From: a virus
Virus record (IMG/VR): IMGVR_UViG_3300039208_000521
Strand: one strand, 5' to 3'
Length of the DNA stretch: 64,000 bases
Position 1 is the stretch's first letter. Each line of letters starts with the position of its first letter. A program made the translations under genes and the position numbers. Of this stretch, positions 36,591 to 54,547 are shown piece after piece. The notes below the pieces were generated by a model. It made no database searches, had not been told where the DNA came from, and worked only from the letters and a program-made list of their open reading frames with translations.

Positions 36591-37650
36591 AATTTATCTA
36601 TATGGGTATGACGTTAGTTATTCTTGAAAGCACGAATCAGTATTAAGTGTTTTCATACACTTAGTTTTTTAAAAAGGTTGTTCTGCGGCCGAAAAATTTT
36701 CACCCTGTCAATATATAAAATTTGGAAAAATGTCGAATTTTTTCCTTGACAGTCTACCGGCCCCTCTAAGGCCCTTCCCTGTAAACCGGCTTCCTATCCA
36801 CGGTGCCTGGTTACCGGTGTCCTATGGTCAGATACGGGCTTTCTAGGTACGGTTTCCGGTAACCAAGTCCATGCAACATGTATTTAGGGGGTTATATGTA
36901 CATAGTGTGTATTCCCACACTAGCAGTATCTAGGATATCGACCTAATTGTAAAGGATAATATTCAAGAATATAAGCCTAGATACTAATATCCTAAGTACC
37001 TGATTTATAAGGACACCTTCCTACAAAGTTCGATAACGTGCATTATGACAAATACCCTGTGACTATTTACCTATTCTGGCCAGTAAAAATATTGATATTC
37101 CTACATTTTTATTTTAGGAATATTGTCCAGGTGAAATTTCTCCTTGACACCTATTGCGCCAAGCGCCATACTGCTAGTGTGGGAATGCGTACCAATGGTT
37201 GCCGGGAACCGGTTACCGAATTAGGGCCCCAAGTTGCCTGTAGTAATGAATAATAATCCCTACCCCATTATTGGGGGGTCTATTTAGAATGTTCTATCCC
37301 CCCTGAAATAATACGCCCTATACGTAAATTAAGCATGGCTGGTTACTGATATATGGGGTGGGGTATACTATGGGTATAGTATGTATAATACATATATCAT
37401 TATACTAATGTATTATATGTATATTATGTTGAATATTATACTTGACATATGATAGGAGATGATAGGATAATGCATAGAGATAAAGGAGATGAATGATGTA
37501 AGTCGGTAACCCGCTATGGATAAGGTTATACCCACCTTCCAACTTTTAATTCACGGGTCCTAAATTAAATGAACGTCCGGGCTAGCCGCATAGAGAAAAT
37601 TTTCGGGGGAATCAGGATTCGAAAAATTTTCTACGCGCGTACACGATTGG
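36590..37650. other. AT-rich non-coding divergence point between leftward and rightward transcription
   Basis: No credible ORF; very AT-rich tract at 37381-37440; + strand TTGACA at 37144 and 37442; repeated GGTTACC/GGTAACC. Confidence 0.65.
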
Positions 37651-40258: not shown

Positions 40259-40581
40259 CCGACAGCCGAGCATATTCGGAAGTTAACCCAGTTGTCGGAA
40301 GGACAATCAAGGCAAATCTTGCAACGCTCAAGATGTCGTTGACCGCCATAGCCCATCATTTAGGTACAAGTCCTTCAAATCTTAGGTATGTATTAGACGG
40401 CGACCGGTGTCTGAGTCCTGAATTAGCTGCGAGATTGCATTGGAAGTTTGATTTGGACACACAACAACTTTTGATCGATCAAGTTTTATTTTCTTACAAG
40501 AGAGCCTTAACTAAGGCGCCGAAAAATATTGGCGGTAAATGGGACAGACGAAAAGAGAAAAAAGGATACTTTGACAGATGA
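40255..40581 (+). CDS. XRE/HigA-like helix-turn-helix regulator
   Basis: MSLTAIAHHLGTSPSNLRYVLDGDRCLSPELAARL. Confidence 0.75.
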   Translation: MTDSRAYSEVNPVVGRTIKANLATLKMSLTAIAHHLGTSPSNLRYVLDGDRCLSPELAARLHWKFDLDTQQLLIDQVLFSYKRALTKAPKNIGGKWDRRKEKKGYFDR

Positions 40582-41120
40582 CCAAACCGCAAATCCCCTC
40601 GCTCTATGACTTCGTCCGGGATAATTGGCACCGGGTCTCCAATGAGACGTTTTCCGAAGACCGAGGCTCCTACGCCCTTTGCTCGGAAATCAGTCGCGCC
40701 CTAGCCGAACCCAACCCAGCCGGGTATTTCCGCCATAGGCGCTGCGGTAAGACCATCATCGGCTCTGTTCTCCTTCCGATTTGGGTTTGGATGAGGGATC
40801 CGGCAGCCGATATTCTGATCGTCCAGCCGGATAAATATTGGCGGAATATCCGCACTCGAACTTTCATCAGGGTCGCCCGTGAAATGGGCATCCCGGTTTC
40901 CGGCGTCCTACTCTCATCCCAAGAGAACCCCTTGGGCGGTAGCCGAGTAACCACGGATCCTTATGTGTTCTTGGGCTATGAAGCCGATGTGCTGGTCTTC
41001 GATGACGCTTTTATCAGAACCGGCGACAGTCCGATGACCCGTGCCGCCGCTCGCGAGGCGCGAGAGCATTGGCCTTGCAAGCTAAAGCCGAATGGAACCC
41101 TGATCGAGTTGGTGAGCTGA
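40578..41120 (+). CDS. truncated terminase-like ATPase domain
   Basis: RRCGKT Walker A, ADVLVFDD Walker B, colinear with the N-terminal 210 aa of TerL; no nuclease domain. Confidence 0.65.
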   Translation: MTKPQIPSLYDFVRDNWHRVSNETFSEDRGSYALCSEISRALAEPNPAGYFRHRRCGKTIIGSVLLPIWVWMRDPAADILIVQPDKYWRNIRTRTFIRVAREMGIPVSGVLLSSQENPLGGSRVTTDPYVFLGYEADVLVFDDAFIRTGDSPMTRAAAREAREHWPCKLKPNGTLIELVS

Positions 41121-41136
41121 CGCCGGAGCATAGGCG

Positions 41137-41421
41137 ATGACAGAATTCGACGAAACCTGCTACATCGCGGTCAAAGCCCTGGAGCCCCATGCTTATGGCG
41201 TCCCGATTGTGGGGTTCCTGCAAGCTTCTCTCGGAAGAGAGCCGAACATAGGCTTGATGTACGCCGCCTTGGATCGTTTGGAGAAAGGGGGCTACCTGAC
41301 GTCCGAGCTCAAAGACCGCGGCGACCCAAAACGAAGCGGCGAGCCTTGTCGGTATTTCCAGACCACGGGAAAGCATCTGCCGGAAAGGAGGGCATCTTTT
41401 GTCAAGCATGCTTGGGCATAA
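41137..41421 (+). CDS. PadR-family winged-helix regulator
   Basis: AYGVPI...IGLMYAALDRLEKGGYLTS...RYFQTT. Confidence 0.8.
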   Translation: MTEFDETCYIAVKALEPHAYGVPIVGFLQASLGREPNIGLMYAALDRLEKGGYLTSELKDRGDPKRSGEPCRYFQTTGKHLPERRASFVKHAWA

Positions 41422-41743
41422 TGGCGGGCCGTCCATGTTGGACACCTATCCGTCCGACGCCAAGCTCCTTCAATATAAAAGTCCGGGGCAAGCCTTCGAT
41501 GCGTATAGCCGACCCAAAGACGGTGAGACCTTCATCAACCGCAAAACGCGTGATCACATCAACGATCATATGGAGCGGCGGGGGCTTTCTAATACGGCTT
41601 GGGAAGGTGGCTATGACGACATACCCTCAGACGGCCATACGATCACAGCTGAAAGTTGGGACTTGCCGGATAAGGCGGAACGGGACAGACTTAAACAGAA
41701 GATGATAGAAGAGAATAGCATGTTGGAGGATCAGACACCGTGA
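41399..41743 (+). CDS. acidic SML-motif protein
   Basis: Three SML copies. Confidence 0.6.
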   Translation: MSSMLGHNGGPSMLDTYPSDAKLLQYKSPGQAFDAYSRPKDGETFINRKTRDHINDHMERRGLSNTAWEGGYDDIPSDGHTITAESWDLPDKAERDRLKQKMIEENSMLEDQTP

Positions 41744-41940
41744 CACCTGATAACCAGGAAACAGCCTCGAATTCCATGCTGGACGAGAAGATTGGTTCCT
41801 CGATGCTGGATGTGGCGTCCGAGGAGCAAAGAGAGCAAATGCTCCAAGAAGCCCGGAACACGATCGAGGATGATCGACGGAATGCCGACTATGGCGGGCC
41901 GAAGTTCGTGAACCCCTTTATCGAGCACATGAAATCGTGA
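41740..41940 (+). CDS. acidic SML-motif protein
   Basis: Two SML copies plus QML; GTG start coupled to the upstream gene. Confidence 0.6.
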   Translation: MTPDNQETASNSMLDEKIGSSMLDVASEEQREQMLQEARNTIEDDRRNADYGGPKFVNPFIEHMKS

Positions 41941-42104
41941 GCGACGATATTTATATCATTGACGACCCTTATGAGGAGCCCGAAAACCCCTTCCCGCCGG
42001 ATTCCAAACTCGGGAAGATCTACCGCCGTGAAGCCGACCGCGAGATCAAGGAAACCGTTCTTCGGTGGTTTCGGAAAATGCTGCCCGAAAGGTTTTCGAA
42101 ATGA
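41937..42104 (+). CDS. 55-aa protein resembling the terminase Walker B segment
   Basis: Hand-translated MSDDIYIIDDPYEE...ETVLRWFRKMLPERFSK; GTGA/ATGA overlaps on both sides. Confidence 0.55.
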   Translation: MSDDIYIIDDPYEEPENPFPPDSKLGKIYRREADREIKETVLRWFRKMLPERFSK

Positions 42105-42481
42105 GCATGCTCTCCGAAGGTCCCTCGGGTGTTTTCAAGAATTTTGTCTATGAGAATTTTACCGGTGACATGGATCACCCCGACTATTGGAAGAATCACC
42201 CGTCTGATCAAAAACGCGCCCTTGTCTCCAAGATGAATGACGCGCACTCAGACCCGGTCGACGCAGCCGAGGGCGGGCTCACGGAAAGCATGCTTGCCGG
42301 TCAAGATCCTGATGATCCACGCTGGAAGAAGATGCGCGAGCTCTCACAAGACTACCGGAAAATTCCTGTACGCGCGCGTAACGACTTTGAGACCGAAGAA
42401 GAATGGGAAGCCCACAACCAAGCAAAGGATGCCGATATCGATCAAGCCGATAAAAAGGCCTATGCCAAGGCGTTTGGCTAG
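42101..42481 (+). CDS. acidic SML-motif protein
   Basis: Starts MSMLSE; TESMLA internally. Confidence 0.6.
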   Translation: MSMLSEGPSGVFKNFVYENFTGDMDHPDYWKNHPSDQKRALVSKMNDAHSDPVDAAEGGLTESMLAGQDPDDPRWKKMRELSQDYRKIPVRARNDFETEEEWEAHNQAKDADIDQADKKAYAKAFG

Positions 42482-42520
42482 AAATTTATCCTTGACAGCT
42501 TTCCTATTCTCTCCTATACC
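42481..42520 (+). promoter_or_regulatory. phage promoter
   Basis: GAAATTTATCC-TTGACA-N17-TATACC with CCTAT-N5-CCTAT; ACACGGAGAGACAGAT-ATG leader at 42596. Confidence 0.75.
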
Positions 42521-42595
42521 AAAGACATAAGCGGTTGTTTCCGAGGCACCGGTGTCCTGGAAACAACCGCTAAAAACAAACACGGAGAGACAGAT

Positions 42596-45388
42596 ATGAC
42601 GCCGACATGGTTCTTCATGATTTTTGCTGTTCTGCATTTTAGTGGTGACCAAGCCCACGGTTATGCAGTTGTGCCGACGATGGATCGCTGCGCCGAGAAG
42701 GGATTTGAAATTCAACTAGGCCTCGCCAAGCAAGGGATAGCCATGAGGTTTAAATGCACGGTCACCGATCCCCGGAAGCCGGTCATCGTTGTCCTGCCAA
42801 TCCAGCCGAAGGGAAAAGCGATATGAGCGCACGTATCACAGTTTATGCAGAGCTTAACGCCAACGACGTTGCTTCGGCATTCGAAGATCTTGATTTTGAT
42901 GATCAACTAGAAGTTCTTAAGCGCATCGGTCAGCATTTCAAAACACTCGATCATATTGAAGAAGTCGTTTGGCATGCGGCAGCCGACGACTTTGTTCCGA
43001 TCGAGGGTCTGTATGCCATCGCTAAAGAGTTGAAAGCGAAAGTCGACAGAGATCGGGAACAAGAGATATGAAACGCTTTCAAGTTCAAACCAAGGGCCGG
43101 GATGTCATCTGGCATGATGTCATCGGCAAGGCCTTTAAGGACGCAACAGCCGAGCAACGGGCGATTTTGTTGAATTGCCTCGTGAATTTTGCGGGGGTGA
43201 CGAATCCGAACCCCGCTTCACTCGCCAATTCCATTCAGCCTTATCTCAATGACAACGTGATTGAGTTGATGCGCGAAATCGTCAGGAGCAGAGACGAGAT
43301 ATGACTAAGAAATACTGGCTAAAAAGCCCGGAAAGAGAAGGTGTTGTGATGACCGAAACGGCAACATATGGCGTCATCGCCCGAGGAATGAGCTTTGTTC
43401 CTTTTGACCCTCCTCACTTCACGGATTCTCCTCACGTCAACCGGATGAGTTGGGGGATTTCCAGGTTTCAAATTACCTAAGAAGGTGCCCCTATTCCGAG
43501 CCACAGGATCGGGCAGCCGGTAAAAATGTTGATCGGTTGCAGGGCCTATTCGGCCGTGATCATGGAGATCCAGACGGAATGTTCTTGGTCGCATGCCGAG
43601 GTGATCGGGGAATTCGGTCATCGGTATATTCAAGGCGAGAGATCGACACAAATCGAAGTCTTGATCCTGGAAAAGGATTGGCCGAGCGACAGTTACGCCG
43701 ACATTGAATTCAAGTGGGAAAACAAAGATGTCTGAAGCCAGAGCGGGCGATTGGGTTCCTGGAAGCCGGTTACAAGGCATTCAACACACCGGGCGCTACC
43801 AACCCCCATGAACCGGGTTCGGACTTAGCTGAAGCTTGGGAACAAGGGCTGCGTTACGCGCTACAAGATCACGACGCCCGACAGACCTTTAATCCTTTGG
43901 GATAATCTTCGATGGCAAAGCATGACGGACAACAGATTCAACAAGCGATCAACATTCGCCAGTCTTTGAAGGCCCAAGCACGATATGCGGGAGGAAGAGG
44001 CGAAGAAGTCCATATAACGACAGAACTCTTTGAGAACGGTCTCCGAGCTCTAGCCGCCTTGGAAAGTGTCGGTCGAACCCTAGAAAGCCTTGATGCTGAG
44101 GTTCGAGACCTAAAAGGCCAGGTCAAAGGATACAAGGACGCGATTTCGTCAATGCGCCTGAATGTACATGCCGAACAGGTTAACGTGACCAAGGTCATTC
44201 ACGTCGACGATGAAGAGGACTATGGCATATGACCCTAATTGAGTTCCTCCAAACCCTTCCAGCCGAGTGGCCGGTTTATGTGGCGCTTCTTTGCGCCGTT
44301 GCGATCGTCACCTCGGTCTCGGTGTTCATCATCCGAGTTTGGGTGACCCACTCCCCAAAGCTCCGGGAACTAATCCGAGAAGAACAGATCGAAGTGCTTG
44401 GTGATGAGGGGCATCGAAGGAAATGAATGATTTCAAAAATTGGTATAGGCGTATGCCGAAGCCACATCATTACGAATACATGCTCAAGCACAGTCTGTCA
44501 TTTCGTATCATTATGATCTCTATTTTTGTTCTGGGGTTTGTCCTCGGTTACCTTACTAAAATGGGTTTGTCCTCATGACCATAAAGCCGGAAGACCTAAA
44601 AAAGCATCATCTGGATAATATAATTGTTCGTCACGCCAATAAGTTGGGAAATCCTCGCTCCTGGGATCAGTATGACGAAGATTTCAATACACTGCTGAAA
44701 TTCGCCCGAAAAGTGGTCGTCAATATCGGTTTGGACATAAGTGCGTCTACGACGACATATTTTGAAGCTAATGAGCCGGAATCCGGCCTTCCTGATCTGG
44801 ATGAGCTGGCCTCATGTTTCGAGCTCCAAATCGGCCAAGCCCTGGACGTGGTTGTTGGCTACTACGTCCCAGCCGAAACCTACATCAAAGTCGCGACGAT
44901 CGACGACGGTCTTTGTCCTGAATGCTTTGGTATGGGGGATATTGAGGGGGAAGAGTGCCCTCGTTGTGTTGATGCGGGTGAGGCTCAGATGTGGAAAGAG
45001 AGCGATTTCAAAAAAGTCTGTAAGGACATGGGCTATGAGCCAAAAACCGGTGATCGAGCTTCTTAAGGGTAACAGTTTGGGTCTGGACCTTAGAAAAGAG
45101 CTTCGAGAAATCGAGAGAGAAATTTATGAGGCATTTTTCGTGCCCAGGAGATTATTGATGCCAAGAACCGTTGTTATCAGAACTTGCATTCTCGCCAACA
45201 CCGCCCCCGGAGAGCGCGTCCGGTTCCCGGCGACCAATGTCGTACTGCGCCGTTGCCAGGATCCCTTGCTCAGCATTGTCCCCCTTAACCCGGACTATCC
45301 TTACTCCATTCCCTGTGTGGACGAGAATGATTGGAAGATCACGCTCGTTAAAGAAACCGCTCAAGTCGAGGTGATTGAAGAACAATGA
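42596..45388 (+). other. run of small early/middle genes of unknown function
   Basis: Coupled ORFs including 42596-42826, 42823-43071, 43068-43304, 43526-43735, 43912-44232, 44229-44426, 44575-45066. Confidence 0.6.
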
Positions 45389-45957
45389 AAACCTGTCCCT
45401 TTTGCGATTCAGATAATCTCCATTGGGCTGATGAGGTGTTGCCCGATCTTCATCGACTTCCTCCGTCAGTCGAAAAAGGGACGGAACGACGGTTTGCTAT
45501 GTATTGTCTTGAGTGCGGCGCCCGAGGACCGGTTGTTGATATCGGGGACGATAGTGGTCAAGGCGGCAACGCCAACCCCATACGCCGAGCCAAAGAACTT
45601 TGGAACAAGCGGCCGAAACTGATCCCGATTGTCGACCAAGAACATGGAACCTTGTTTGGCTATCTGCCGGAAAAGATATTCGGCGGACAAGTTCAGCAAA
45701 ACATGACGCGTTTTTTGTTGCCTCTGTTTCCTCCCTTATCTGATTCAGTGTCGGAATTTCTTTCTTCCCGCGACCCTCACGCGGATCGATTTGACGTGAT
45801 CGAATGTATTTGGATTGAATCACGGACCGGCGGCTATAAACAACGCCCCGATGCCTATCGAGGCTTCAAAGTCGCGGTAAAAAATCCAGACGCTTTGTTC
45901 CGGTACCCGGATTTCAAGACTTGGACCGAAGTTCACGGAGAACCTCATGTTGGATAA
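45385..45957 (+). CDS. Lar (restriction alleviation)-like zinc-finger protein with C-terminal extension
   Basis: KTCPFCDS...YCLECGARGP...AKELWNKRP. Confidence 0.65.
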   Translation: MKTCPFCDSDNLHWADEVLPDLHRLPPSVEKGTERRFAMYCLECGARGPVVDIGDDSGQGGNANPIRRAKELWNKRPKLIPIVDQEHGTLFGYLPEKIFGGQVQQNMTRFLLPLFPPLSDSVSEFLSSRDPHADRFDVIECIWIESRTGGYKQRPDAYRGFKVAVKNPDALFRYPDFKTWTEVHGEPHVG

Positions 45958-50408: not shown

Positions 50409-50966
50409 ATGAGTGAAGAAGCAGCCGATATTGCGTATCTCTGGGACTCAGACGCCAATGACTTGGTTGGACTTGACGCTGTTAAGCGAGCCGAGTTCCT
50501 AGGCTTTGTCGAAGAGTTGGGGATGGTAGAGCCGGCCGGCGCCATGGTCGGGCTAACTATCGCTGATATCCAGAACGCTATGGAGGGCGATAGTCGGCTT
50601 CAGACGGATATTCTTTTGGCGGTCGGTCGCTATAAAGCGAACTTCCTACGCCGGATGAATCATCTCGCCTTCGAGGGGTCCGAGAAAATGGTGGTTGGCG
50701 GCAAAGATCGCAATATTCCGATCGGTGTGGATGTTATCCCAAACGACGCCGCCTTGAAGCTCTTGGCGCAGATGAAGTTCGGCGATGACTTGGCAATCGT
50801 CACTCGGCAGCGCATTGAAGCTGAAATGAAGCCCTCGGGCTCTGATCAAGTTCAAGCCGATTTCTCGCAGCTTACAGGCGATGAGCGCAAAGATATGGCT
50901 CGTTTGATGAAGAAGGCACAGAAACAGAAGAAGTTGATGAAGGAGGTAAAACCAGATGGCGAATGA
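50409..50966 (+). CDS. probable terminase small subunit
   Basis: Position upstream of TerL; HLAFEG...NDAALKLLAQMK...DFSQL pattern. Confidence 0.6.
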   Translation: MSEEAADIAYLWDSDANDLVGLDAVKRAEFLGFVEELGMVEPAGAMVGLTIADIQNAMEGDSRLQTDILLAVGRYKANFLRRMNHLAFEGSEKMVVGGKDRNIPIGVDVIPNDAALKLLAQMKFGDDLAIVTRQRIEAEMKPSGSDQVQADFSQLTGDERKDMARLMKKAQKQKKLMKEVKPDGE

Positions 50967-51162
50967 TAGGCACCAACAGTTTGTGACTAAATACTTTCAG
51001 TACGGTCACTTGCCGGATCATCTTCAGGGGACATCACGGATGTTTCATGAAGTGGCTGTCCAGTTGCTGGATATGTATGCTTATGACGACGCCGAGTTGA
51101 TGGTTGCTTTTCGTAAGCTCCTGGAAGCCAAGGACTGTGCTGTTCGGGCGGCGTTGCCGTAA
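50956..51162 (+). CDS. conserved small phage helical-hairpin protein
   Basis: FQYGHLPDHLQ...FRKLLEAKDCAVRAAL. Confidence 0.65.
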   Translation: MANDRHQQFVTKYFQYGHLPDHLQGTSRMFHEVAVQLLDMYAYDDAELMVAFRKLLEAKDCAVRAALP

Positions 51163-51175
51163 GGCATGTAGAGAA

Positions 51176-51457
51176 ATGAGCAGCCGCGTTATCGGAGCCT
51201 TAATCGGTATTTGGTCATATTTGCAAAGATACCGAAATGAGCTGTGTGTCGAAGGACAGACTAAGAATGTTCTACGGTATGCATTTAAAAGAGCTTGGTT
51301 AAATGTTCTAAGAAGAAATAAAGATGATCTTCACCCAGATCATAGAGAACAACTAGAGAGACAAAATAGTGCAAGAGAAGTGTACCAAAAAGAAACAGTA
51401 ACTTATTCGGGAGAAACTATTCATCCGCCCACTATAAGCCATGGCCCTAAAGAGTGA
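51176..51457 (+). CDS. hypothetical protein (AT-rich insert)
   Basis: Start MSSRVIG within the track ORF. Confidence 0.45.
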   Translation: MSSRVIGALIGIWSYLQRYRNELCVEGQTKNVLRYAFKRAWLNVLRRNKDDLHPDHREQLERQNSAREVYQKETVTYSGETIHPPTISHGPKE

Positions 51458-52995
51458 AACGCCGAGCCCCTCTTAACATCGACAAGGCTCTCTGTGAGCT
51501 GGAGCTCCGCTCCTTCGTCAATCAGATGTGGCCTGTTTTGGAGCCGGGGCGAACCTTCACTAACGGTATGCCAGTCGATGCTGTTTGTGAGCACTTGGAG
51601 GCGGTTGCTGAAGGCCAGATAAAACGTCTGGTCATCAACATCCCGCCGGGTTGCACCAAGTCGATGCTGACCAATGTGTTTTGGCCGTGTTGGATATGGG
51701 GGCCCCGGCGAAGACCTTCTGCACGGTTCTTGTCAATCGCCTACAACGCCGGTTTGACGGTGAGAGACAACCGCAGATCTAGAACCCTATTGGAGTCACA
51801 TGAATATAAACAACTTTGGCCCCATGTTAGTCTCAATCCTCACGAACAAAACGTACAGAAGTTTTCAAATCTACAACAAGGCTTCCGAATGGCGTCGTCC
51901 ACAGGCGGGCGAGTCATGGGTGAGCGCGCCGATATTGTTATTATTGATGACCCAAATGACACGGCCAAGGTCGAATCAGAACAAGCGATCGAGAGCGCTC
52001 TCCAATTTTTCACAGAAGTGCTCCCCACGCGCATTAATGATCCCAAAGAAAGCTGCATGGTCGTCATTATGCAAAGGGTCCACTCGCGGGATATTTCCGG
52101 TTTCATCCTTAGCCAAGAGCTTGGTTGGGATCACCTTTGCCTTCCCATGTGGTACGAGAAGGATAGGCATTGTGTCACGTCGATAGGGTTTGAAGACTGG
52201 CGCCGAGAAGAAGGGGAACTCTTATGGCCGGAACGGTTCGATGAGACATCTCTCGCACGGGATGTCAAAATCATGCGCGCCTGGGGCGGCGACTTCGCTA
52301 TCGCTGGACAAATGCAACAGCGTCCAGTTGGTCGTGAAGGCGGCATGTTCAAGAAGAAATACTTTGAAATTGTCGACGTTGTCCCGCCTGGGGGCCGTAT
52401 CGTTAGGGGTTGGGATCTTGCCGCTACGTCGAAAGCTCAAAATCCTAGAGCGGCGTTTACGACCGGTGTTAAGGCGAAAATTGTCGGTGGGGTCTTATAC
52501 ATTCTTGATGTGGTACGAACCCGAAAAGAACCGGCCCAGGTCGAGGAATTCGTTTACCAGTGCGCTTTAGCTGATGGCCGGAAAGTTACGCAAGACATAC
52601 CTCAAGATCCGGGCCAATCAGGCAAAACACAAAAAGTCGCGTATGGAAAAAGGCTCGAAGGCTTCGACGTCCGCTTCAGCCCGGAAACCGGCGACAAGAC
52701 CAACAGAGCCATTCCCTTGTCAGCAAAGGGAGAACTTGGTCTAATAAAACTCGCTCGCGGGATGTGGAATGAAGACTTTTTGTCTGAAATCACTATGTTT
52801 CCACGGGGAGATTACAAGGATCAGGTCGATGCTCTTAGCCGTTGCTATGGGCGCTTGCTTGTGCAACCTGTCCCCAAAGTACCAGCCAAACCGATATTGG
52901 TGACAGCTCATGGCGACACTGCTAGCCCCTCGCAAGGATCCTTCCGACCGCCGGTTGGTGAATCAACACGGGGTGCCGATACCCCAGCGAATTAG
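51454..52995 (+). CDS. terL: terminase large subunit
   Basis: NIPPGCTKS Walker A, IVIIDDP Walker B, MQRVH, GWDLA nuclease motif, DQVDA. Confidence 0.95.
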   Translation: MKRRAPLNIDKALCELELRSFVNQMWPVLEPGRTFTNGMPVDAVCEHLEAVAEGQIKRLVINIPPGCTKSMLTNVFWPCWIWGPRRRPSARFLSIAYNAGLTVRDNRRSRTLLESHEYKQLWPHVSLNPHEQNVQKFSNLQQGFRMASSTGGRVMGERADIVIIDDPNDTAKVESEQAIESALQFFTEVLPTRINDPKESCMVVIMQRVHSRDISGFILSQELGWDHLCLPMWYEKDRHCVTSIGFEDWRREEGELLWPERFDETSLARDVKIMRAWGGDFAIAGQMQQRPVGREGGMFKKKYFEIVDVVPPGGRIVRGWDLAATSKAQNPRAAFTTGVKAKIVGGVLYILDVVRTRKEPAQVEEFVYQCALADGRKVTQDIPQDPGQSGKTQKVAYGKRLEGFDVRFSPETGDKTNRAIPLSAKGELGLIKLARGMWNEDFLSEITMFPRGDYKDQVDALSRCYGRLLVQPVPKVPAKPILVTAHGDTASPSQGSFRPPVGESTRGADTPAN

Positions 52996-54547
52996 AGAGA
53001 CCAATGTTGCTCGGACCCGAGGCGGTGCTGGGTTTTCGGTTCATGGCGGTTATCTCGATGAGAAAGAGACGTCTGGCTCTCTTACCGGCCGGGAACGCTT
53101 CCGCACTTATTCTCAAATCCTTGCCGATACGACCATCGTCGCTTCCGGTGTCCGGTACTTCTTGAACCTTGCCGCCAAGACACCTTGGAAGGCGAGGCCG
53201 GCGAACGATACCCCTGAAGCCAAGGAAATGGCTGAGTTCGTCGAGAAGATGTTTAAGGAGATGAAGACCCCGATGCACCGGGTCGTTCGTCAAGCAGCGA
53301 TGCACCGCATGTACGGCTTCGCCACCATGGAGTGGACAGCCGAAAGGATGGACGATGAACGAGGAAGTTACCGGGTCTCGCACATCGAGAACCGCCCGCA
53401 ATGGACGATCGAGCAGTGGGACACAGATTTCTCAGGCCGAGTTCTTGGCGTTATCCAGTGGCCTATCCAACAACCTAGTCTCCGAATCTATCTTCCTAGA
53501 AACAAACTCGTCTACCTCTGTGATAACTCATTCACGGATGATCCGAGAGGTTTGGGCATTCTTCGACACGTCGTCCGTCCGGTCAAACAACTTAGAGACT
53601 ACGAGCGCTTAGAGCATATCGGCTTCGCGACCGATATGAAGGGTATTCCGGTTGCCAAGGCCCCGCTTGCGGAAATTCAGGCCGCACAGGACAATGGCGA
53701 TCTTGAAGAGGCAGACGCCTTGGAGATCACCAAACCTCTCCGGGACTTCATCACCAATCATATCCGGGGCACGGACACCGGTATCCTCTTAGATAGTTCT
53801 GTTTACGCCGGGAGTGGTGAAGATGAGACCCCAATCAAAGCCGAAAAGTTCTCGATTGAGCTCTTGTCCGGTGGCTCCTATGGCCACAAGGAAATTGCTG
53901 AAGCCATTGAGCGTATCAACCGGGAGATCGCCCGAGTTCTGGGAGTCGAACAATTACTCTTGGGCGCGGATAGTGCCGGTTCTCTCGCCCTCTCGCGTGA
54001 TAAAAGCCAAGCGTTTTTCATGGTGGTTAACGCAGCGCTGAGCGAAATCAAGTCCGCCCTTATCGCTGATATCCTCATGCCGATATGGGCGCTGAATAAT
54101 TTCGACCCGGAGCTGATGCCCCAACTTGACTTTGAGAGCGTTGAGTTCAAAGACCCTGAACAGATCTCGAAAGTCATCAAAGACCTTGCGACGTCCGGTG
54201 TTCCGATTGAAACCGAAGATCCCCTTGTCACGGAGTTGCTGGCGGTTGTCGGTCTGTCGCCGCTTGATCTTGCGTTGCGTGACGAGAAGATGGAAATCCG
54301 TATCCAAATGGCTCGTCTCGGTCTTGATGAGAATGGTCTTCCGCTTCCAGGCGGCAATCCTTTCATGCAGCAAGCCGGTCCTAGCGGGGGCTCTTCTAGT
54401 GAGTCTAGTCCTGGTCAACTCTCAGGTAATCTTGCTGGCGTTGATCCTGGGGGTAGCGCTGATGACGCTCTTCGCGCCTTGCAAGGAAGACGAGCGGCTA
54501 GAAGCAATCAAGCGCGCCCTCAAAGACCAACCAATGTCCCGAGGTAA
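52910..54547 (+). CDS. portal protein (DUF935/Mu gp29-like)
   Basis: Follows TerL; DDPRGLGILR, INREIARVLG motifs; 545 aa. Confidence 0.85.
   Translation: MATLLAPRKDPSDRRLVNQHGVPIPQRIRETNVARTRGGAGFSVHGGYLDEKETSGSLTGRERFRTYSQILADTTIVASGVRYFLNLAAKTPWKARPANDTPEAKEMAEFVEKMFKEMKTPMHRVVRQAAMHRMYGFATMEWTAERMDDERGSYRVSHIENRPQWTIEQWDTDFSGRVLGVIQWPIQQPSLRIYLPRNKLVYLCDNSFTDDPRGLGILRHVVRPVKQLRDYERLEHIGFATDMKGIPVAKAPLAEIQAAQDNGDLEEADALEITKPLRDFITNHIRGTDTGILLDSSVYAGSGEDETPIKAEKFSIELLSGGSYGHKEIAEAIERINREIARVLGVEQLLLGADSAGSLALSRDKSQAFFMVVNAALSEIKSALIADILMPIWALNNFDPELMPQLDFESVEFKDPEQISKVIKDLATSGVPIETEDPLVTELLAVVGLSPLDLALRDEKMEIRIQMARLGLDENGLPLPGGNPFMQQAGPSGGSSSESSPGQLSGNLAGVDPGGSADDALRALQGRRAARSNQARPQRPTNVPR

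Follow-up and report, generated by a model that had tools for sequence, protein, structure and literature searches.

A phage micro-gene family whose likeness to the large terminase subunit is confined to the Walker B strand and the next helix: a possible TerL-derived micro-protein mimic

What is encoded by a 55-residue open reading frame of a phage genome whose only recognizable feature recalls the Walker B segment of the large terminase subunit (TerL), and what could so small a protein do? The micro-ORF lies at 41937-42104 (+) of IMG/VR record IMGVR_UViG_3300039208_000521, of which a stretch of 64,000 nucleotides, called the window below, was analysed as a whole. It starts with GTG and fills the gap between two genes exactly, with 4-base overlaps at both ends: the start codon lies in a GTGA shared with the TGA stop of ORF 41740-41940, and the TGA of the micro-ORF lies in an ATGA shared with the ATG at 42101 of the downstream ORF. 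The predicted coupling on both sides is therefore confirmed from the sequence and its translation. When eleven long + strand genes of the window are used to train a codon-usage log-likelihood, the frame of the micro-ORF scores +0.30 bits per codon and the other two + frames -0.30 and -0.35, and this sign pattern, with the own frame best, is that of the neighbouring genes. The identical protein (P0002) is already a called gene on a 77.6-kb contig of IMG and among the Logan assemblies, so the description of the gene as unannotated holds for the ORF track on which the original prediction was based but not for the public gene callers, which list the exact protein. With its overlaps, its codon usage, these gene calls and a start position shared with the homologues described below, the micro-ORF looks like a genuine small gene.

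The TerL of the window is encoded at 51454-52995 (+) and is identified by phrog_38 (E 4e-68) and Terminase_6C (E 5.6e-11). Family searches place a terS-like gene at 50409-50966 and a Mu-type portal at 52910-54547. The nearest cultured TerL, that of Shewanella phage S0112, is only 45% identical, and close uncultured relatives with TerLs 64-88% identical (P0008-P0022) are found on contigs of 74-77 kb. The segment resembled by the micro-ORF in alignments is TerL residues 159-194 (51928-52035, +), where the Walker B strand leads through a loop into a helix; in the TerL model, which has a low pLDDT of 58, a strand at 161-165 is followed by a short turn, a helix at 176-193 and a strand at 201-206. 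Several TerLs of the clade (P0009, P0016, P0086, P0114) are interrupted in the Walker A P-loop, after residue 69, by an intein of 250-356 residues that bears LAGLIDADG domains. A connection of the micro-gene with intein homing was considered and rejected, since these inteins interrupt Walker A and not Walker B.

The micro-protein can be divided into three parts. Residues 4-11, DIYIIDDP (41946-41969, +), form a Walker-B-like hydrophobic stretch ending in two aspartates and a proline and align with DIVIIDDP at TerL 160-167; IYIIDD and TerL IVIIDD both have the form of a hydrophobic strand with an acidic end, which is hhhhDD in this clade. Residues 17-31 (41985-42029, +) appear as a gap in the alignment, being a 15-residue insertion relative both to TerL and to the shortest homologue. 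Residues 32-53 (42030-42095, +) form a helix segment with VLRWF...LP.R, which matches the amphipathic TerL helix after Walker B and which a broad TerL HMM aligns to its profile positions 186-209 (consensus ealqwftevlptR). TerLs of the clade (PHROG 4758 and 38; Terminase_6N) have the same hhhhDDP strand and an LRWF/LQWF ... LP.R helix in the same order. Only about 35 of some 500 TerL residues are kept, with no Walker A, C-motif strand, lid or nuclease. No Walker A P-loop (G/PxxxxGK[ST]-like; PPGCTKS in the clade) is found in the 55 residues, the protein stops two residues past the helix motif, before any C-motif strand (IMQR) or RNaseH-like nuclease, and Pfam and PHROG searches give no Terminase_6C match. 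Lacking Walker A, the C-motif strand and the nuclease, the micro-protein cannot be an ATPase.

An AF2 model built from a two-member alignment predicts, at moderate confidence (pLDDT 73), coil for residues 1-23 and a single helix for residues 24-48; no Walker-B-like strand is predicted by AF2 in the isolated protein. Residues 24-31 of the insertion form the N-terminal part of the modelled helix, which the insertion would lengthen in the two members that carry it. From the models, the micro-protein corresponds to one TerL core strand, unable to form without a sheet partner, and the helix that follows it.

Taken alone, the window protein gives a likeness to TerL that is marginal. The parallel of DIYIIDDP with DIVIIDDP, noticed in the original prediction, is reproduced by BLASTP, in which the micro-ORF and the window TerL share 15/51 identities with one 15-residue gap at a pairwise E of 0.002 (TerL 160-195). 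The alignment with the TerL of a related locus, L044, is somewhat better (17/51 identities, E 2e-4). Neither the window ORF nor its closest homologue, P0004, has a Pfam or PHROG match at E<=10, PADLOC finds nothing for the window ORF, and a phmmer search of the window ORF against 1.84 billion representatives returns no TerL. Its score is equalled by 6 of 20,000 shuffles with the broad TerL HMM and by 156 of 20,000 with a close-clade HMM, and when 1146 small ORFs from the six frames of the window are ranked it comes second, behind an out-of-frame ORF. About one match of this quality is expected by chance in a scan of the whole window. P0004 alone is not TerL-like: 102 of 5000 shuffles reach its score, and no TerL is among its top BLAST matches. 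A comparison by hhalign with only these two members against TerL gives a probability of 8.6%, and the two-member profile (A1) finds no TerL in the PDB at E<=10, only spurious TPR and zinc-finger matches. An origin as a recent copy of the TerL gene of the window itself was rejected: there is no DNA similarity, and LRWF of the micro-protein fits other TerLs of the clade better than it fits LQFF of the window TerL, which argues that the gene is not a recent local copy.

The picture changes when the homologues are compared as a family. P0004, a 70-aa protein on a 957-bp Logan contig, is 59% identical to the window ORF (E 1.8e-10, HMMER/phmmer, 1.84 billion representatives) and has in common with P0002 the IIDDP strand, the conserved, proline-rich insertion (residues 17-31) and a VLRWF-x-KML helix. 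A third member came from 58 loci that had been fetched with a TerL alignment: a six-frame search with the profile of P0002 and P0004 found, at E 1e-5, a 45-aa protein (P0128) at L044:287-421 (+) on contig Ga0180433_10279671. This member is gene-called by IMG and ENA, is without the 15-residue insertion, and matches the window ORF at E 1e-5 and P0004 at E 1.5e-7 by BLASTP. The first bases of this member overlap the 3' end of a terS-like gene (L044:1-291) and its stop lies 11 nt before the ATG of terL (L044:436), whose product shares 51% identity with the TerL of the window over the part available. Conservation as a small protein, which the original prediction had named as a check, is borne out by these two homologues.

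In all three members I-x-I-x-DDP and LRWF are invariant, and the start codon lies 3-9 residues ahead of the IIDDP strand. The family can be defined (A3) as proteins of 45-70 aa with I-x-I-x-DDP-[YW]-x-E-x-E and a C-terminal helix LRWF-x-K-x-L, a description that includes the window ORF. The [YW]-x-E-x-E after DDP and the x-K-x-L after WF occur in all three micro-proteins and not in TerL, and such shared residues argue that the three form one family and are not three independent fragments. Two further HMMER matches, P0005 and P0006, were dropped from the family as low-complexity repeat proteins. No member beyond that of L044 was found in IMG/VR, metagenome contigs, GTDB genomes, INPHARED or six-frame HMM searches of the 58 TerL loci, and the micro-gene is missing from about 24 other TerL loci of the clade with upstream sequence. 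The family is thus rare and sporadic: 15 billion proteins and four contig collections yielded three members. Its LRWF motif, found also in other TerLs of the clade, points to an old, mobile family that would have moved between phages. The second-best PHROG of the L044 member is phrog_6189 (E 0.031), a 56-position family of unknown function that could be a counterpart in cultured phages.

At the family level the likeness to TerL is much clearer. By hhalign the three members match an alignment of 66 TerLs with a probability of 88% and E 3.1e-6, the alignment covering 36 columns at TerL 159-194, and an alignment of 116 TerLs with a probability of 86% and a score of 40.4; across the three-member comparisons E ranges over 3-5e-6. 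Column shuffles of the 116-TerL comparison have a mean score of 13.6 (sd 2.6, maximum 28.1), none of the 400 reaching 40.4, and a reversed-alignment control scores 15.2. The likeness has in this way passed the profile alignment by which the original prediction was to be judged. In 110 of 117 TerLs the best stretch for the family profile is the hhDDP/helix site, DDP is invariant in the three micro-proteins and in the 66 TerLs, and a near-identical helix is present in some TerLs (EEVLRWFSETLPTR). Between the L044 member and the Walker B segment of the neighbouring TerL there are 13/25 identities with a gap of only one residue (E 3e-5), and the best PHROG of this member among 38,880 is the TerL family phrog_4758 (positions 159-189, E 0.015). 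When the same member was compared by tblastn with 50,697 phage records, 36 of the 38 weak matches were identical to one another (query 7-36, 41.9% identity, E 6), and terminase large subunit is the annotation in about half of these rows. The spacing of strand and helix in the L044 member equals that of TerL, and the window and P0004 members add the 15-residue insertion. Resemblance to the Walker B segment of TerL is taken here as a real property of the family, one that leans on a single short member from a TerL locus, and the simplest account of it is descent from a TerL fragment. Judged by its sequence, the micro-protein is a putative derived fragment of TerL and is not counted as a member of the TerL family, since no curated profile is matched significantly, the best value being the E of 0.015 obtained with the L044 member.

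The surroundings of the micro-ORF in the window belong to a + strand block of small overlapping genes that begins after strong sigma-70-like promoter matches at about 37.1-37.5 kb. The strongest of these is an 11/12 consensus match at 37442-37471 (+), which heads the block, and no convincing terminator was found between it and the micro-ORF. Both genes flanking the micro-ORF do bear the SML motifs that had been noted in the original prediction. The upstream neighbour (41740-41940, +) encodes an acidic protein of 66 aa in which SML occurs twice and the downstream neighbour (42101-42481, +) a protein of 126 aa with MSML and ESML motifs, and neither has a match in Pfam, PHROG or PADLOC. SML occurs in the three genes around the micro-ORF (41399-42481, +), with varied codons for Ser (AGC/TCC/TCG) and Leu (TTG/CTG/CTC/CTT), and this variation indicates a motif at the protein level and not copies of the AGCATGCT palindrome. 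An ORF at L046:113-508 (+) on contig SDBV01288249.1, which lies upstream of a gene for a TerL sharing 56% identity with that of the window, has a repeated acidic segment with DDSML and may be related to the SML proteins of the window. Further along the block, the N-terminal part of a 190-aa protein (45385-45957, +) is similar to the zinc ribbon of Lar, a restriction-alleviation protein (PF14354, E 3.3e-5, not reaching the Pfam cut-off), which hints at an anti-defence flavour of the block.

Upstream, at 40578-41120 (+), lies a 180-aa ORF that is weakly TerL-ATPase-like (Terminase_6N E 0.071; phrog_38 E 0.031) through a Walker A region and an hhhhDDA sequence, and that matches the window TerL at its P-loop by BLASTP (E 0.002). 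Single-sequence scans for relatives of this ORF and of TerL found nothing. It is separated from the micro-ORF by 0.8 kb, which hold two SML genes and a gene for a PadR-like winged-helix regulator (41137-41421, +; PF03551, 27.4 bits, at the cut-off) that overlaps the first SML gene by 23 nt. The claim that the micro-ORF is a second terminase fragment close to a first one finds some backing in the Walker A likeness of the 180-aa ORF, but the two ORFs have no detectable similarity to each other. The broader suggestion of a dedicated terminase-mimicry locus stands only in part: the link to terminase is upheld by the synteny of L044, whereas the mimicry locus stays a proposal in view of the intervening PadR-like and SML genes, the dissimilarity of the 180-aa ORF, the lack of further colinear TerL pieces in the flanking DNA and the LRWF motif. 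Decay of a terL pseudogene as the source of the micro-ORF was likewise rejected, because no colinear TerL pieces were found in any + strand frame of 40400-43400, apart from the micro-ORF and the 180-aa ORF themselves.

The reading favoured here, to which a probability of about 0.5 is assigned, is that the family consists of TerL-derived micro-protein mimics that compete for whatever binds the Walker B strand and helix segment of TerL. A fragment of TerL would have given rise to the micro-protein family, which then would have moved between phages, and the isolated strand and helix would compete for a partner that docks on, or reads, this segment. The candidate partner may be TerL itself or a neighbouring subunit of the motor, or alternatively a host terminase sensor, for example Avs1-3 or Upx. 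That exactly the aspartates and the LRWF helix are retained in the three members argues for binding by way of the TerL-like face, and competition for a partner of the TerL segment would fit the retention of TerL-like elements in a protein in which catalysis is impossible. Competition would also fit the location of one member inside a terS-terL operon and of another 0.8 kb from a TerL-ATPase-like gene. The L044 homologue between a terS-like gene and terL supports a link to terminase biology, while the window member sits in an early-looking operon. In ASCE ATPases the Walker B strand lies in the core of the sheet of the folded protein, so that mimicry of the surface of folded TerL would not be straightforward. 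In published models of the TerL ring, the interface between subunits is close to the active-site cleft and to the helix after Walker B.

Among the alternatives, a small adaptor or regulator of TerS-TerL, that is, a terminase cofactor without mimicry whose TerL-like sequence only records its origin, is rather unlikely. It draws on the L044 member, which lies inside the packaging operon, overlapping the stop of the terS-like gene and preceding terL by 11 nt, and on the window itself, where two further small ORFs separate the terS-like gene from terL. A 68-aa ORF in this interval (50956-51162, +) contains YAYDDAELMVAFRKLLE, which is loosely like hhhDD ... FRK.L; it is missed by the family HMM at E<=20, and its resemblance to the micro-ORF is probably due to chance. 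Against a cofactor, the window gene is located 9.5 kb upstream of terL, in the sigma-70-headed block of small genes and beside the PadR-like and Lar-like genes, and the absence of the gene from about 24 other TerL loci of the clade argues that it is not a core component of packaging.

A narrower proposal is that the micro-protein serves as a peptide decoy or blocker of the host sensors that recognize the terminase ATPase (Avs1-3, through active-site residues, and Upx), which we regard as doubtful. The strand and helix would occupy or mis-assemble the sensor ahead of the synthesis of the real TerL or in the course of it, and the micro-protein together with the 180-aa ATPase-like protein would constitute an anti-sensor module. 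Avs3 reads 'immutable' active-site residues and bound ATP, and Avs2 binds the ATPase domain (PMC13601566, PMC11564622); Upx has been modelled to thread unfolded strands of the TerL ATPase through the sensor by beta-augmentation (PMC13601566).

That the gene might encode an ordinary small accessory phage protein unrelated to TerL, with hhhhDDP and an amphipathic helix arising by chance or convergence, is improbable. The single-sequence statistics would suit such a protein, with the pairwise E of 0.002 and no Pfam or PHROG match, the second rank among 1146 ORFs behind an out-of-frame one, the two-member hhalign probability of 8.6% and the top BLAST matches of P0004 free of TerL. They are opposed by the three-member profile, which none of the 400 shuffles comes near, by the alignment of all members at the same TerL site, by the one-residue gap with which the L044 member aligns to the neighbouring TerL, by a TerL family as the best PHROG of that member, and by its weak tblastn matches, which fall on TerL genes where annotated. 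The weakest explanation, a partial TerL duplication of which a neutral remnant keeps an open frame by accident, would account for so short, sporadic and rare a gene but is very improbable in view of the intact frame, start position and motifs kept in three phages with TerL identities of only about 50%, the non-TerL insertion conserved between P0002 and P0004, the tight gene packing on both sides in two genomes and the lack of other colinear TerL debris nearby.

The TerL-derived mimic proposed here has partial counterparts in known systems. Eukaryotic microProteins such as Id and LITTLE ZIPPER keep a single interaction element of a larger relative and bind in a competitive, non-productive manner, and the class is defined by a demonstrated dominant-negative interaction. 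The micro-protein is similar to them in size and in the single kept element, but here the element is part of an enzyme core and not a dimerisation domain, and the comparison drawn here is one of sequence relation to the parent. Among phage proteins, T4 vs.8 (PMC13601566) and Ksap2 of Stephanstirmvirinae (PMC11564622) are stand-alone TerL-ATPase-like proteins reported to activate Avs2. Like the micro-protein, vs.8, Ksap2 and the 180-aa ORF of the window are accessory, terminase-ATPase-derived or -like, and encoded away from the true terL. In contrast, vs.8 and Ksap2 are whole ATPase-core folds, vs.8 with both Walker A and Walker B, whereas the micro-protein comprises one strand and one helix in 45-70 residues and is unable to adopt an ATPase-core fold; with 55 aa, a coil and one helix in the AF2 model and no Walker A, the window protein is not of the T4 vs.8 type. 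A targeted literature search found no conserved 45-70-residue gene keeping only the Walker B strand and helix. Stand-alone terminase-ATPase paralogues were already known, and what would be new here is a gene reduced to the Walker B strand and helix.

Terminase is among the main molecular patterns by which bacteria recognize phages, and vs.8 and Ksap2 have only just been tied to this recognition. The product of a conserved gene reduced to the Walker B strand and its helix would be smaller than any terminase-derived protein yet described. If the micro-protein binds TerL, it would be a natural peptide regulator or inhibitor of the packaging motor; if it binds a sensor, it would represent a new kind of anti-defence decoy. 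With either partner, it would mark which 35 residues of TerL are functionally read. More generally, micro-ORFs under the usual annotation cut-offs can be recognizable derivatives of core phage genes.
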